IMG/VR virus record: IMGVR_UViG_2721755658_000005
Coordinates: 1-46,563 of that record
Origin: a virus
Lineage: Duplodnaviria > Heunggongvirae > Uroviricota > Caudoviricetes
DNA length: 46,563 nt
Direction: 5' to 3' (one strand)
The translations under genes and the position numbers were made by a program. The notes under the pieces were generated by a model, which saw only the letters and a program-made list of their open reading frames with translations, was not told where the DNA came from and ran no database searches. Within the stretch, counting starts at the first letter, position 1. The number at the start of each line of letters is the position of its first letter. Of this stretch, positions 3,666 through 10,083 are shown piece after piece.

Positions 3666-4080
3666 TATAAGAATCCGCTTCTAATTCAAAGCATTACCCC
3701 ATCAACACTGCGCTCACACGTCCCACCACATCAAAACATGTAAAGCCTTGCAAGTCATTGCGAGGCCTTATGTGTCTCAGTTTTGTCCCACCTTGTATTA
3801 CGACTTGCATAGCCAATGAAGATAAATGTGACGACAAACGGCGCAGCAGTCTTCTTTTCCTTCATACTTTCCCCACCCAGCATGCATACCTTCTACCATA
3901 ACTGTAGTTAATGTCTGTTATGAGCGAAAAGCGGTCCTTAAATACAATTTTCATTGATAACGCCGTCTTGTTGCTATTGAAGACATTATCAACATCATTG
4001 TGTTTTTACTTATATTTGAAGGAGGGCTATTCAAGGGATTGCCCCCTTTTAACAAAAATTCCACCAGAACAGTAGGTCTG

Positions 4081-5775
4081 CTAATTGGTCTCTATAATTG
4101 AGCTTAATTCGTTAATGAGCAGGTGAGGGCTCATTTGAGTTAAGTCATACTGCCGCCCCAATTTCTCTTGCATTCCTCCTCGTATTTTCTTTAATAAATA
4201 TTTGCCTTTAATGTTATTAACTGATGTCGGAACTTGGTTTCCAAATAATGTTAGGTGTCGAGGGCATGCTTCCAGTCTCCCCTTATATAAATTATATTTA
4301 ATCACCTCTCTTTTGGATTGAAAATCAGACTGGATGACAACATGATTTTGTGCGGCTATATCAGTAATCCATGTTTGTATATCTTGCACAGAAGAGCCTG
4401 TAACATGAGATAAATGCTCTATTCTGGTAAAATAACTCTCAATATCACTACCTTCAGTAATGAATGGAATGGCGCCACCTCTTTGAATTTCTGCTTTTAC
4501 TATATCTACTTCTTCATCAGTCATAAAATCGCGGTCACGATGAATTATAACCTTGCAATTAGGGGACATTTCCTTAAGAAGGTCAGCAGATACAATTGCT
4601 CCTTGCACATTTGTGCATGTTTTGTAGCTATAGACTGCAGTTCTCTCCATATCAAAACCATTATATTGTAAAAGGGCCTTGAAATATTTTTTATCTCTAT
4701 CTTCAGTGAGAAATATATTCTCCACAACTCCTTCAGTTACTCTATCCAAGTCATTTAAAGCTCCTAAATCTAAGAACATTGATATTTTGTCCAAATCCAT
4801 GCCTTGATTCTGAACATTACCATCTTTCATCCAAATAAAATTTGCCTCTCCATACAATGAATCAATTATATGTTTGCTATGAGTGGAAAGTATAACTTGA
4901 GTTTCTGATTTGTTATTTTCTGATATTAAACTCAATGAGTCAGTGAGAATATATTGATTATCAGGGTGAAGATGAGAATCCGGTTCATCTAAGAGTAATA
5001 ATTTAGGTTTGAAATATACTATATATGCAAATATCTGTAATGTTTGAAGTAATCCAGTTCCCGCCAACTCGATAGGGTAATTTTTCCCACTTGCATTTTC
5101 TTTAAAATTAACGGTTAGATAAGTATCTTTATCCTCTTTGAAATCCACTTCGATTTCTATATCTGGAAATACAACTTGCAGCATGCTATTGAGATTTACC
5201 AAGTGGTTATCTTTGTTCAGATAGTATATGACATTCCTTAAGTATAAATTTGCATCACCACTTGCCACTCCTCTTCTAACTATTGCTGGCGATTTTAATT
5301 CTTCCTTCTGTGAGATACCAGCCAGACCAGGGACATATATACTAAAGAGATTTTTTTCATCGGTGATTACTGAACCGAAGCCGGTATAATCACCGGTTCT
5401 TTCACATGACATATTTCCATGATTTCGTCCCTTAGATATAATTATATTGTATTCTAATTGTCGACCAGCAAGATCATCATATCCAAAAAGACTCAACACA
5501 CTTTGATTGCCAGGCGACCTCGAATTCTTATAAGGTTCGCCGTTCTTTAAAACAGTGAAGTCTGGGGTGATATTATACATTAAAAGTTCAGTAGAGAATG
5601 TTTGTTGACTTTGTTGCCGAGCGGCAATAGCTGCGCATACTGAAAAATGTATAGCTTGCAGAATACTGCTCTTACCTGAACTATTTGCCCCTACTAATAC
5701 ATTTATATCACTAAGGGTGATTTCTGCTGTGTCAATTTTTTTGAATTTACTAACAGACAAAGACTTAATGAACAT
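4081..5775 (-). CDS. ABC/AAA15-type ATPase fused to a Toprim/DUF4435-like C-terminal domain (OLD-family or fused PARIS AriA-AriB-like defence nuclease)
   Basis: ATPase motifs are present: Walker A GANSSGKSS, signature-like LAGTGLLQTL, Walker B LLLLDEPDSHLHP, and H-loop ILSTHS. The C-terminal part carries IFLTEDRDKKYF, IIHRDRDF and SDIESYF, which resemble the acidic Toprim/DUF4435 motifs. The ATG at 5775 has an AAGGA Shine-Dalgarno. The track start at 5793 is a TTG. Confidence 0.6.
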   Translation of the reverse strand: MFIKSLSVSKFKKIDTAEITLSDINVLVGANSSGKSSILQAIHFSVCAAIAARQQSQQTFSTELLMYNITPDFTVLKNGEPYKNSRSPGNQSVLSLFGYDDLAGRQLEYNIIISKGRNHGNMSCERTGDYTGFGSVITDEKNLFSIYVPGLAGISQKEELKSPAIVRRGVASGDANLYLRNVIYYLNKDNHLVNLNSMLQVVFPDIEIEVDFKEDKDTYLTVNFKENASGKNYPIELAGTGLLQTLQIFAYIVYFKPKLLLLDEPDSHLHPDNQYILTDSLSLISENNKSETQVILSTHSKHIIDSLYGEANFIWMKDGNVQNQGMDLDKISMFLDLGALNDLDRVTEGVVENIFLTEDRDKKYFKALLQYNGFDMERTAVYSYKTCTNVQGAIVSADLLKEMSPNCKVIIHRDRDFMTDEEVDIVKAEIQRGGAIPFITEGSDIESYFTRIEHLSHVTGSSVQDIQTWITDIAAQNHVVIQSDFQSKREVIKYNLYKGRLEACPRHLTLFGNQVPTSVNNIKGKYLLKKIRGGMQEKLGRQYDLTQMSPHLLINELSSIIETN

Positions 5776-5822
5776 TTTCTTTTCCTTTTTCAATGAAAGG
5801 TGTAAAACTTTAACTCATCATT

Positions 5823-6107
5823 TTAGTTGTTAACATTCAAAATCATAAACTGATTCTCTATTTTACCAATGAATAGCAGTCCTATCAGAGTAAAAATAGT
5901 GTTAGATATTTTTCTTACATCTGAATCTGAGAAATATTCGGATTCTTTATAGCAATTATTCCATATGTCGAGTTCTCTAAAATCATAAGCTAAATGAGCA
6001 ATTTTTCCCCAATCTTCATTTACTATATGTTCAGCCATTGTAAAAAAATCACTCTTAGTCGGAATGTCTATTCTCATTGTTACTTGGCCTATTTTTTCAT
6101 TGCTCAC
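5823..6107 (-). CDS. hypothetical 94-aa protein with C-terminal hydrophobic segment, probably co-transcribed with the ATPase
   Basis: The gap to the ATPase gene is small (29 nt to its TTG start at 5793, 47 nt to the preferred ATG at 5775). The strand and AT-rich composition are the same. The hydrophobic stretch is ISNTIFTLIGLLFIG. Confidence 0.45.
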   Translation of the reverse strand: MSNEKIGQVTMRIDIPTKSDFFTMAEHIVNEDWGKIAHLAYDFRELDIWNNCYKESEYFSDSDVRKISNTIFTLIGLLFIGKIENQFMILNVNN

Positions 6108-6296
6108 ATATATAACTATATGATATTTATATTAAAACTCCAACATTAAGTTTCGGCTTTCTTCAAGTAAACTACATAGCACGATGTAAGCAACTTCCGC
6201 TTTTGGCACATAGCAGTCCTAGAGATACTGGCGTAAAGCCATGGAGGATCGGTGGGAGGAGGTAAAAATCCTCTCATGCAAAAAATACGCAAAATC

Positions 6297-6386
6297 GATA
6301 ACAGTTGGAAATCATTCAATACTCGCACTATCGGAAGTTCACCAGCCAACCGCAGCACGTTCTTGCATACGACATGCCTGCGGTTT
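6297..6386 (+). repeat. copy A of a ~90-nt structured repeat (ends in hairpin CCGCAGCACG...CATGCCTGCGG + TTT)
   Basis: It aligns without gaps to 8972-9061 with about ten mismatches by eye. One mismatch pair is compensatory: GTTGG/CCAAC in copy A versus GCTGG/CCAGC in copy B. Confidence 0.8.
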
Positions 6387-6407
6387 CAACTCCCGCCAGC
6401 TCCACCA
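6380..6407 (+). other. look-alike of the 3' terminus of tmRNA (ssrA): GCGGTTTCAACTCCCGCCAGCTCCACCA
   Basis: It differs at one position from the E. coli ssrA 3' end as I recall it (GCGGGTTCAACTCCCGCCAGCTCCACCA). This is probably an att-site relic of an ssrA-targeting element. Confidence 0.55.
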
Positions 6408-6531
6408 ATCATGATTGGACGGTTAAGGACAACACCAATAAAAACAGGAAGTTAGCAGTCTCAGCAGGACACCGACCAGACGGTGAGGAGACAAAAAAGG
6501 ATACGCAAAGGAGCCGCGGCTCCCGAGTGAC

Positions 6532-6567
6532 AAAAAAGCCCGCTTATGCGGGCTTTTTTGTTTTTTT
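6532..6567. terminator. bidirectional intrinsic terminator
   Basis: AAAAAA-GCCCGC-TTAT-GCGGGC-TTTTTTGTTTTTTT. It lies 10 nt downstream of the Bro-N gene stop on the minus strand. Confidence 0.75.
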
Positions 6568-8828: not shown

Positions 8829-8842
8829 TCTTTGCTAATCTT

Positions 8843-8868
8843 AGGCCCTTTTCTAGGGCCTTTTATTA
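8843..8868 (+). terminator. intrinsic terminator
   Basis: AGGCCC-TTTTCTA-GGGCCT followed by TTTATT. Confidence 0.55.
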
Positions 8869-8971
8869 CACTTCTGTTACGCGCACCACAGATAGAGTTT
8901 CAGCTAAAACTTTTGTTCATACCTAGGAGTCTGCTGACGAGTGGTTTGTTCACTAATAAACACGTAAAAAC

Positions 8972-9061
8972 GGTAACGGCTGGACATCATTCAATATTCG
9001 CACTATTGGAAGTTCACCAGCCAGCCACAGCACGTTCTTGCATACAACGTGCCTGCGGTTT
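8972..9061 (+). repeat. copy B of the ~90-nt structured repeat (hairpin followed by TTTTT)
   Basis: See copy A. This copy ends CCTGCGGTTTTT. Confidence 0.8.
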
Positions 9062-9249
9062 TTGAGACCGGTCCGATCATCAAACGAAACATAAAATTAG
9101 CTCACACTATGAGGAAAAGTATCTTTTTTTACTATGTAAATTCAAAGAATTAGCCTCATTTACCCGATAGTTTTCTCAACACTACTGGTTGTGAGCCCTT
9201 GCAATGTTCATTAATATACGTCTCACAAATAATTCATAGATATTGCAAA

Positions 9250-10023
9250 ATGGATATTACTGAGTTTCCTTCTGGAGTAATTGAACACCTTGGCTGGTAT
9301 GTATACCGATTGATTGATCCGAGGGACGGAAGCACCTTCTATGTAGGGAAAGGCAAAGGTAACCGCGTATTTGCCCATATGCGCGGTGAAGTGGCAGCGA
9401 CTGATGATGACGAGTTACTGAGCAACAAGCTAAAGCAAATTAGAGAAATAAGGTTAGCAGGACTTGAGGTTATCCATGTCATCCATCGACACGGAATGAC
9501 TGATGAAAAGACGGCGTACGAAGTTGAAGCAGCACTTATTGATGCCTACCCTGGGTTAACGAATATCATGAATGGTGCTGGCAGCAATGAATTCGGCGCC
9601 GCGCATGTCAAAGAGTTGATAGCAACATATCAACCCGAAACCATAACATTTCATCATAAAGCATTAATGATTTCCGTTAACAGAAGTGCAAAGGATTCAG
9701 AGCTTTATGATGCGGTTCGATTTAGCTGGCGCATTAATGTCTCTCGCGCCAGCCAAGCAGAAGTCATTCTTGCTACTGTAAGGGGGATCGTTCGAGGGGT
9801 TTTCATTGCTGATAAATGGCTCAAATCAACACGTGAAAATTTCCCTACGATGAAATACTGGGACGAGGATCCGGACTTTGAGGCAACACAAAGTTCTCGC
9901 TATGGTTTTGAAGGTCGAGAAGCCCCACCTGAAATAGCAAATCTTTATCTTGGAAAAAAAATACCAGATGAATTAAGAAAAAAAGGAGCTATGTCCCCGG
10001 TCCGTTACTCACCTAATTTTTGA
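9250..10023 (+). CDS. GIY-YIG-type nuclease domain protein with uncharacterised C-terminal domain
   Basis: The N-terminus [29 protein letters not shown] gives GIY- and YIG-like motifs plus Arg. A downstream acidic YEVEAALID follows. The ATG is at 9250. The track start at 9199 is an alternative codon. Confidence 0.7.
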
Positions 10024-10043
10024 GTCTTTAAGTGATAAGCATA

Positions 10044-10083
10044 AACCGCAGCACGATCTTCTTCCATACGACGTGCTACGGTT
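10044..10083. terminator. partial copy C of the repeat hairpin; bidirectional terminator between the GIY-YIG gene and the invertase gene
   Basis: AACCGCAGCACG-N16-CGTGCTACGGTT forms a 12-bp stem with one mismatch. It is flanked by T-runs on both strands and abuts the invertase stop at 10084. Confidence 0.6.

Follow-up and report, generated by a model that had tools for sequence, protein, structure and literature searches.

A probable three-slot hotspot of defence cargo at the int-distal end of an SfII/SfV-like thrW prophage

In the Shigella phage SfII, an acyltransferase gene, a transposase gene, gtrII, gtrB and gtrA lie between the tail-fibre assembly gene and attP/int. What fills this position in relatives that have no gtr genes there? 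The question is raised by IMG/VR virus record IMGVR_UViG_2721755658_000005 (Caudoviricetes), whose 46,563 nt, positions 1 to 46,563, form the window analysed here. A preliminary description, made from the letters of the window, had singled out its segment 3666-10083 as AT-rich, mosaic cargo typical of anti-phage hotspots. Our analysis indicates, with a probability of roughly 0.8, that 3620-10083 is the attP-proximal moron region of an SfII/SfV-like temperate myovirus integrated at thrW: a hotspot that takes up to three exchangeable cassettes and holds anti-phage cargo, through which lysogen and prophage would gain protection from competing phages.

The region lies within a prophage. An exact 46-nt direct repeat, the longest exact repeat shared, stands at 3620-3665 and 45120-45165 and equals the 3′ end of thrW; ARAGORN found one tRNA in the window, an intact tRNA-Thr(CGT), thrW itself, at 45120-45195(-), of which the second repeat copy is the 3′ 46 nt. 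With a tyrosine integrase open reading frame (ORF) at 43942-45105, the repeat and thrW place the prophage at 3620-45165 and put 3666-10083 at its int-distal end. The structural genes (12000-36000) are 97% identical to those of Shigella phages SfII, SfI, SfIV and SfV, and the tail-fibre genes come beyond a serine invertase at 10084-10638(-). This bears out the precedent that the preliminary description had cited, since the phage is SfII-like and SfII has gtrII, gtrB and gtrA at the same position. The gtr cassette itself is missing from 3666-10083, where the scanned ORFs gave no match to a glycosyltransferase or flippase family; megablast of 3300-11200 likewise gave no match to any Sf phage in the cargo part.

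We mapped 13 related E. coli prophage ends (L001-L007 and L018-L023) onto the window by blastn, and took a census of 5,426 complete E. coli genomes, with a megablast of 3300-11200 for the region as a whole and separate counts for its parts. Several lines of evidence from these comparisons support a hotspot.

First, the flanks are constant and the content between them differs. Each of the seven thrW relatives (L001-L007) has the att core and arm, from 3603 to about 3934, as well as the invertase and one or both of 6192-6386 and 8955-9061. Sharp breakpoints recur, agreeing within 5 nt: homology in the arm ends at 3934-3939 in four loci with different cargo, and on the far side of the first compartment it resumes at 6192-6196 in four loci that differ in what this compartment contains. 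The fixed elements are these:

3620-3665, no strand: int-distal att core, an exact 46-nt copy of the thrW 3′ end (repeat search)
3666-3934, no strand: conserved non-coding att-proximal arm, left anchor of slot 1, with a hairpin at 3745-3766 (90-97% identity in 7/7 thrW ends)
6192-6386, no strand: conserved spacer between slots 1 and 2, holding the right half of an inverted repeat (6195-6207) and copy 1 of a 107-nt repeat (blastn against relatives)
8873-9061, plus strand: spacer between slots 2 and 3, made up of a dinI-like pseudogene tail (8873-8953) and copy 2 of the repeat (8955-9061) (tblastn)
10084-10638, minus strand: Pin/Hin-type serine DNA invertase, right anchor of the hotspot (Pfam Resolvase, 5.5e-52, and HTH_7; pinE in the relatives' annotation)

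The compartments that they bound are filled as follows:

Slot 1 (about 3935-6191), window, L001 and L002: ATPase cassette
Slot 1, L003: retron Ec48-type reverse transcriptase (RT) and 2TM effector
Slot 1, L004: AbiTii-like gene and an unknown
Slot 1, L007: PDC-S64-like gene and an unknown
Slot 1, L005: S1 serine protease
Slot 1, L021: HEPN protein
Slot 1, L022 and L023: unknowns
Slot 1, L006 and L032: nothing
Slot 2 (6387-8954), window, L003, L004 and L005: Bro-N/XRE/ImmA
Slot 2, L001 and L007: absent, with a single repeat copy remaining
Slot 2, L006: type II restriction endonuclease (REase) and C5-methyltransferase
Slot 3 (9062-10083), window, L001 and L003-L007: GIY-YIG gene
Slots 2 and 3, L002: both replaced by one 502-aa unknown protein

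Second, experimentally validated defence systems, as identified by PADLOC, are present among the alternative contents. They matched retron models (RT_IV, 2.4e-163; 2TM_IV, 1.9e-82), AbiTii (4e-37), REase_II (1.5e-233, with the adjoining gene annotated as a DNA cytosine methyltransferase) and mREase_IV, a type IV REase (E 0), along with an Aga-type REase and a protease effector-like protein. Conserved flanks around varied defence cargo at a single position mean that the region behaves as a defence hotspot.

Third, the cassettes of the window are accessory. No genome of the census has at least 80% of 3300-11200, and many have parts of it. The arm alone occurs in roughly a third of the genomes (an estimate from evenly spread match rows), the ATPase cassette in 2/5,426 (99.7% identical copies), the Bro-N/XRE/ImmA cassette in 35/5,426 (all at least 99% identical, at thrW and at prfC) and the GIY-YIG gene in 837/5,426. 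When 3300-11200 was run by megablast against the phage collection, the only match beyond those to the invertase gene was phage LLS, 76% identical over the Bro-N cassette, and no isolated Sf phage had any of the three cassettes. Phage vB_EcoM-689R6 was considered as an isolated-phage example of the slot and rejected, as the record is a prophage excerpt with host flanks at another integration site.

Composition also sets the cargo apart: GC is 0.34 at 3935-6191, 0.395 at 6577-8872 and 0.42 at 9062-10083, against 0.548 in the virion genes at 13000-31000. The preliminary description held up on this AT-richness and on gene content (an ATPase-nuclease-like protein, a small ORF, Bro-N, XRE, ImmA, mini-ORFs and GIY-YIG). 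Its three cassettes now have sharper edges from comparative genomics, at about 3935-6191, 6387-8954 and 9062-10083. The comparison of int-distal slots across thrW prophages that it had proposed found the cassettes swapped at conserved edges, and the census counts, with the absence from isolated Sf phages, show that they are not conserved core genes. A PADLOC run on the ORFs, also proposed there, identified the GIY-YIG protein as full-length PD-T4-3 and matched the ATPase, XRE and ImmA proteins to defence-linked models.

Hotspots of varied defence cargo are established in P2-like prophages and P4-like satellites (PMC9122126; bioRxiv 2022.05.12.491691), and E. coli mobile elements at tRNA or transfer-messenger RNA (tmRNA) integration sites carry defence cargo (PMC10121019). 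Like the P2 and P4 hotspots, the region occupies a fixed position in a temperate phage, has conserved flanks around known defence genes and unknown ones, and carries compact, AT-rich cargo. Unlike them, it belongs to an SfII/SfV-like lineage at thrW, lies between the attP arm and the tail-fibre invertase, and is subdivided by spacers common to ssrA- and prfC-integrating prophages. It shares with the gtrABC cassette of SfII, SfV, SfX and SfI the same position (tail-fibre end to attP), in phages with 97%-identical virion genes, and the character of a lysogen-benefiting, superinfection-limiting moron, and differs from it in coding for intracellular nucleases and regulators as opposed to surface modification. 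A search of open-access text found no publication on this hotspot. The principle of prophage hotspots is already established and the advance is incremental; what is new here is the gtr slot of Sf-type phages as the site, the three-compartment layout with shared spacers, a fossil ssrA attP within it and two candidate modules.

What, then, do the three cassettes encode? The clearest case is slot 3:

9250-10023, plus strand: CMoRE/PD-T4-3, a GIY-YIG type IV restriction endonuclease of 257 aa (PADLOC; phmmer against the PDB)

PADLOC aligned residues 18-273 of the ORF with positions 1-255 of the 256 in the PD-T4-3 model (E 2.7e-140), Pfam LEM-3_GIY-YIG matched it at E 2.4e-14, and phmmer aligned residues 5-262 of PDB entry 9U75 with it (E 2e-172), with 4 substitutions in 258 positions (about 98% identity); the matches take in both the GIY-YIG domain and the C-terminal sensing domain. 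Entry 9U75 is CMoRE of E. coli O157:H7, for which a further structure, 9U7U, exists, and which, as a type IV restriction endonuclease, breaks down DNA that carries 5-hydroxymethylcytosine (5hmC) or glucosyl-5hmC (PMC12923530); it restricts Tevenvirinae in a native host (bioRxiv 2024.12.20.629700). The slot 3 gene encodes essentially the same protein, with no material difference by sequence, and we infer that it would cut 5hmC or glucosyl-5hmC DNA and restrict T-even phages. This module is already fully known.

Slots 1 and 2 hold two uncharacterised candidate modules. Slot 1 contains:

4081-5775, minus strand: ABC ATPase with a Toprim-like domain, 564 aa (570-aa ORF from TTG 5793) (Pfam, PADLOC and AlphaFold2 (AF2))
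5823-6107, minus strand: small ORF upstream of the ATPase gene, 94 aa as listed, likely start ATG 6077 giving 84 aa (ORF call)

In the 570-aa numbering, the ATPase spans residues 1-335 and the Toprim-like domain residues 336-570. Sequence models reach the ATPase half only (Pfam AAA_15/AAA_21; PADLOC AriA, NsnB, Old, GajA, PtuA and MAD3). Full-length homologues of about 560 aa, 43-95% identical, occur in Klebsiella, Vibrio, Thauera, Methylobacter, Bacillus and Paenibacillus, and phmmer against 1.84 billion representatives returned 425 clusters at 50% identity with E 1e-3 or better, from Proteobacteria and Firmicutes, mostly fusions of 550-600 aa with some standalone proteins of 255-320 aa. As to a split two-gene form, no ATPase gene neighbours that of the standalone homologue P0231, and the contig with P0223 is 1 kb long. 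An alignment of 47 sequences from several phyla shows no variation in Walker A, Walker B and the H-loop, nor in E364-D365, H418-x-D420-x-D422, D450-x-E452 and K494-R495. The AF2 models are confident, with a predicted local distance difference test (pLDDT) value of 90.8 when the whole protein is modelled and of 92.5 when residues 336-570 are; the best structural match of the C-terminal domain is AriB, with OLD Toprims next, at Foldseek scores that are not significant. The spacing of its acidic residues (29/30, 85/87 and 115/117) resembles that of E26/D30, D88/E90 and E122, which form the active site of AriB (PMC11464382).

PARIS consists of the ABC ATPase AriA and the DUF4435 Toprim protein AriB, occasionally fused, and acts by tRNA cleavage once phage anti-restriction proteins (Ocr) activate it; the OLD family comprises P2 Old, class 1 Ts OLD and GajA. 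With both, the slot 1 protein shares an N-terminal ABC/SMC-type ATPase head and carriage on prophages, and may share a metal-binding Toprim-like domain; with OLD it shares the intact Walker A, Walker B and H-loop. It differs from both in a C-terminal domain that has no detectable DUF4435 or OLD Toprim sequence similarity and forms a separate family outside Pfam, and from PARIS in the length of its ATPase part, about 335 residues compared with the 464-residue AriA chain in the PDB. We conclude that the protein probably works like an OLD/PARIS-type, ATPase-gated Toprim nuclease while being filed in neither family. An ATP-dependent sensor head would hold a two-metal Toprim nuclease inactive until an infection cue, and the released nuclease would cut nucleic acid (tRNA or DNA), aborting infection. 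Of the ATPase-nuclease fusion that the preliminary description had proposed, the ATPase half is borne out; the nuclease half draws on fold and motif, not on sequence homology.

A protein with such a head might instead act in DNA repair or maintenance in the manner of RecF/SbcC/Rad50, or be a toxin that stabilises its element; it would then be a generic moron that does not sense phages. There is a weak NCBIfam RecF match, and the Bacillus and Vibrio homologues lie outside obvious prophages. However, OLD, GajA, PtuA and AriA have the same head fold and score equally well, the AF2 model has no coiled-coil insertion of Rad50/SMC length, among the other occupants of the slot are a retron and an AbiT-like gene, and the neighbours in Vibrio, four uncharacterised genes and an HNH gene, make up a context resembling a defence island. 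We regard this explanation as improbable and retain the ATPase-gated nuclease as the preferred reading of slot 1.

The two ORFs of slot 1 differ in their codon changes. Compared with the Klebsiella orthologue, the ATPase gene has 39 synonymous and 28 non-synonymous codon differences; random change in such a gene would be mostly non-synonymous. The small ORF has 5 synonymous and 15 non-synonymous differences, matches no family in Pfam, PADLOC, PHROGs or NCBIfam, is kept with the ATPase gene in E. coli and Klebsiella only (84% aa identity) and has no counterpart upstream of the ATPase homologues in Bacillus and Vibrio. The 'small partner' of the preliminary description is present as an ORF, but it is doubtful both as a gene and as a partner of the ATPase. 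The Klebsiella locus (L012-L015, 8001-9695) has the 95%-identical orthologue and the small upstream ORF at a prophage end, with a host SRAP (yedK-like) gene on one side and umuDC, a serine invertase and tail-fibre genes on the other; it is the same kind of slot in another genus.

Slot 2 contains a divergent pair of transcription units:

6577-7338, minus strand: Bro-N protein, 253 aa, Ant-like (Pfam Bro-N, E 1.5e-7, 32.4 bits against a cut-off of 25.6)
7672-8022, plus strand: XRE-family helix-turn-helix (HTH) regulator, 116 aa from ATG 7672, with AGGAGG upstream (Pfam HTH_19, 3.7e-9, and HTH_3)
8026-8559, plus strand: ImmA/IrrE M78 metallopeptidase, 177 aa, with an HELGH motif (Pfam Peptidase_M78, 2.8e-11)
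8546-8828, plus strand: two mini-ORFs that overlap, 49 and 47 aa (annotated as hypothetical in every RefSeq relative)

The Bro-N gene diverges from XRE/ImmA across a 333-bp AT-rich intergenic region, and an 11/12 match to the sigma-70 promoter lies just upstream of it at 7389-7362(-). The XRE protein matches PADLOC HTH_VI (2.4e-12) and capH (6e-11), and its start agrees with the 351-nt RefSeq coding sequence in the relatives. ImmA, whose gene lies 3 nt from that of XRE, matches the capP (5e-15) and RmrA models. The mini-ORFs have no family matches, and a terminator hairpin stands directly beyond them at 8843-8861. Adjacent XRE HTH and M78 genes with a divergent candidate regulated gene recall the CapH/CapP pair associated with cyclic-oligonucleotide-based antiphage signalling systems (CBASS) and the ImmR/ImmA pair of ICEBs1. 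The cassette differs from these in that the divergent gene encodes a single Bro-N protein, not a CBASS operon or an integrative and conjugative element's excision module, and in that the linkage is not kept among Bro-N homologues. With Ant-type anti-repressors it shares the Bro-N N-terminal domain and not the ANT/KilAC C-terminal domain: Pfam gave no match past residue 117. The most likely mechanism, by analogy, is that damage or infection sets off a proteolysis through which the Bro-N gene is derepressed. The XRE repressor and the ImmA-type protease would form a CapH/CapP- or ImmR/ImmA-like switch, and DNA damage or infection would derepress the divergent, Ant-like gene; the output may be defence, inter-prophage interference or induction.

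The same parts would suit a lysogeny or induction accessory, in which DNA damage leads to cleavage of XRE by ImmA and the Bro-N protein, as an anti-repressor, then induces this or another resident prophage; in a variant, it could interfere with the repressor of an incoming temperate phage. Of the eight PHROG families that the Bro-N protein matched, seven are annotated as anti-repressor (Ant; best E 5e-17), XRE with an M78 peptidase is the ImmR/ImmA architecture of ICEBs1, the isolated temperate phage LLS has a homologous cassette beside attP, and the cassette is found in prophages only. Because the Bro-N protein matches anti-repressor families, the statement in the preliminary description that the region carries no lysogeny function may not hold for this cassette. 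Yet the prophage has a CI-type repressor of its own, with HTH and Peptidase_S24 domains, at 40507-41133, which means that its primary switch is not this cassette; a CI-like HTH+Peptidase_S24 repressor is able to self-cleave with RecA. Most relatives, SfII, SfI and SfV included, have no such cassette, hence it is dispensable for the life cycle; the same slot holds a type II restriction-modification system in L006 and L019; and the ANT/KilAC domain is missing. On this balance we consider a lysogeny accessory rather unlikely and keep slot 2 as candidate cargo of the hotspot.

Two further observations concern this cassette. In genomes H148, H163, H170 and H171, insertion sequence (IS) elements of the IS3 family lie within or beside it, which suggests ongoing disruption or turnover. 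In Methylovulum sp. GCA_030653435.1 (L027, 6001-8339), a 39%-identical Bro-N homologue, an AAA_21 ATPase (340 aa) and a 165-aa ORF stand between glyQ and glyS, which looks like a small three-gene island splitting these normally adjacent genes.

How might the cassettes have reached this position? The answer lies in the spacers, which hold two further features:

6380-6576, no strand: fossil ssrA (tmRNA) attP, a 28-nt ssrA 3′ core (…TTCAACTCCCGCCAGCTCCACCA) and phage arm (blastn)
10030-10075, no strand: partial third copy of the repeat hairpin, terminator-like, between the CMoRE stop and the invertase stop (10046-10086 against the L020 507-545 region)

Slot 2 is bracketed by a 107-nt direct repeat (6280-6386 and 8955-9061, 87% identity) whose 3′ end is a hairpin with T residues after it. 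The repeat is the 3′ flank of a dinI-like gene. L020 is a lambdoid prophage at prfC, and there the repeat comes after an intact dinI-like gene and before a 98%-identical copy of window 6287-9063, beyond which lie tail-fibre genes. The dinI-like tail in the window is 69% identical over 32 aa to the DinI-like protein of L020, with an internal stop and a deletion (tblastn E 9e-8). Two other identities for the repeat were rejected: an att or tRNA fragment is ruled out by its being a dinI-like 3′ flank, with only the following 28 nt ssrA-derived, and an invertase crossover (hix/gix) site was discarded because by eye the repeat is unlike the consensus. Rfam gave nothing at the gathering score over 3000-11000, its weak matches all falling on a terminator at 6529-6562, so the repeat is not a known RNA family. 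An extra copy (83-86%) lies at L004 1066-1188 (NZ_AP027576.1) between ecpE and ykgJ, in a chromosomal intergenic region outside any obvious prophage.

Directly after repeat copy 1, 6380-6407 is the last 28 nt of ssrA, and 6408-6578 matches the sequence downstream of ssrA in ssrA-integrated prophages; the terminator at 6529-6562, a bidirectional one, lies in this arm. The fossil attP matches the ssrA 3′ end and downstream sequence of most E. coli genomes at 90-95% and is 94.5% identical to L019 4001-4197, located after an intact ssrA, where the order is ssrA, arm, REase, methyltransferase, CMoRE and tail fibres. In phage LLS, int is followed by an attP whose annotation reads tmRNA pseudogene, and then come the Bro-N homologue, XRE, ImmA, invertase and tail fibres. 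The ssrA core and arm, here and in L019 and LLS, thus reveal an ssrA-type attP embedded within a thrW prophage, and slots 2 and 3 look, from this sequence context, as if they had once been the att-proximal cargo of a phage that integrates at ssrA. These cassettes are found at each of thrW, ssrA and prfC, and the ssrA attP core and dinI-like tail inside the region indicate that prophages with other integration sites were a source of imported cargo. The dinI flank, the ssrA arm, and the genes for invertase and tail fibres are the shared spacers, and homologous recombination within them would move cassettes between phage families, with occasional illegitimate joins also contributing.

An internal att core and a pseudogene tail could also mark the region as mostly decaying debris, a build-up of dead prophage ends (old att cores, pseudogene tails and orphan genes) that persist without counter-selection, with CMoRE alone functional. 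The excess of non-synonymous change in the small ORF and the IS insertions in several relatives would fit. All the larger ORFs are intact, though, and the ATPase keeps every residue that is invariant in its 47 homologues, with the preponderance of synonymous change against Klebsiella noted above; the near-identity of the Bro-N cassette across 35 genomes and more than one integration site further indicates recent spread. We judge wholesale decay to be very improbable and return to the hotspot of exchangeable cassettes.

Several results do weigh against that reading. The preliminary description had given each cassette its own promoter and terminator. A sigma-70 consensus scan found 20 promoter-like sites compared with 19.8 in shuffled sequence, so the promoters are not enriched; the terminator half of the claim fared better, with 9 terminator-like hairpins against 4.5 (standard deviation 2.6) in shuffles, about twice the mean, and these sit in the conserved spacers, not within the cassettes. 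For the predicted nuclease domain of slot 1, besides the lack of any significant Foldseek hit, a Pfam scan of residues 356-570 at E up to 10 gave no match to DUF4435 or any other family, and a C-terminal-domain profile run against the PDB, again at E up to 10, picked out neither an AriB nor an OLD chain. The PADLOC AriAB model (694 positions) covers residues 7-72 only, with no full-length fused match, and Old matches best at residues 7-54, the OLD Toprim not being seen by family models. In slot 2, the intergenic region between Bro-N and XRE contains no convincing operator palindrome, and Bro-N homologues of Yersinia, Pantoea, Methylovulum and a metagenome have no XRE/ImmA neighbour, so the three genes are not an obligate system and their regulatory link comes from geometry only; moreover, Bro-N proteins are usually anti-repressors, which is a lysogeny and not a defence function. 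Finally, we infer the exchange by spacer recombination from the sequence of the breakpoints, and to our knowledge there is no spacer-specific recombinase.

The edges of slot 1 raise a question of their own, as they carry the halves of an imperfect inverted repeat:

3924-3936, plus strand: left half of the 13-nt imperfect inverted repeat bracketing slot 1, GCGAAAAGCGGTC (pattern search)
6195-6207, minus strand: right half of the 13-nt imperfect inverted repeat, GCCAAAAGCGGAA (pattern search)

The pattern has only these two matches in the window and was derived from the same two sites. Both halves are kept in L003, L004, L005 and L007, which have different cargo, and L004 shows one apparently compensatory change. 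Joined, the halves look like a bidirectional intrinsic terminator with a cassette in place of its loop. In the census, 16/5,426 genomes are near-empty at slot 1; the two that were inspected appear as a microhomology deletion of 3889-6207, of the L006 type, and the intact empty-slot hairpin AAAAGCGGAC-loop-GTCCGCTTTT was not found in these two of the 16. We advance only as a tentative suggestion that the 4081-5775 protein founds an unrecognised single-polypeptide defence-nuclease family, pairing an OLD/PARIS-like ABC-ATPase sensor with a Toprim-like effector too divergent for any Pfam, PADLOC or PDB sequence model, and, separately, that slot 1 was filled by insertion into the loop of a terminator hairpin, not by flank recombination. 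Hairpin-loop insertion, if true, would be a new mode of targeting for defence cargo.

Beyond the hotspot on its left, positions 1-3300 of the window encode homologues of RadC (1826-2302), the CbeA antitoxin (2553-2870) and the CbtA toxin (2828-3232), the end of a CP4-6-type island that abuts the distal att copy, so that two elements stand in tandem at thrW. On its right, opposed tail-fibre C-terminal and assembly genes at 10665-11159(+), 11162-11605(+) and 11577-12179(-) adjoin the invertase, an arrangement (10665-12179) consistent with an invertible host-range segment. The prophage has two more AT-rich islands (GC 0.40-0.43), at 18042-18572(-) and 33232-34251(+), with ORFs of 176 aa and 339 aa that gave no Pfam or PADLOC match; the second is on the opposite strand and adjoins the Q antiterminator gene (34266-34658). 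Both may be additional morons.

On the reading that we favour, the slot that serves O-antigen conversion in the Shigella Sf phages probably serves in their E. coli relatives as a three-compartment defence hotspot. Guilt by association would make two compact, cloneable candidates of its contents: the rare ABC-ATPase/Toprim-like fusion and the Bro-N module with XRE and ImmA. Because about one in three complete E. coli genomes has its left arm, the hotspot could serve for a systematic search for new systems. The spacers shared across thrW, ssrA and prfC prophages would offer a concrete, sequence-level route by which defence genes flow between unrelated temperate phages.

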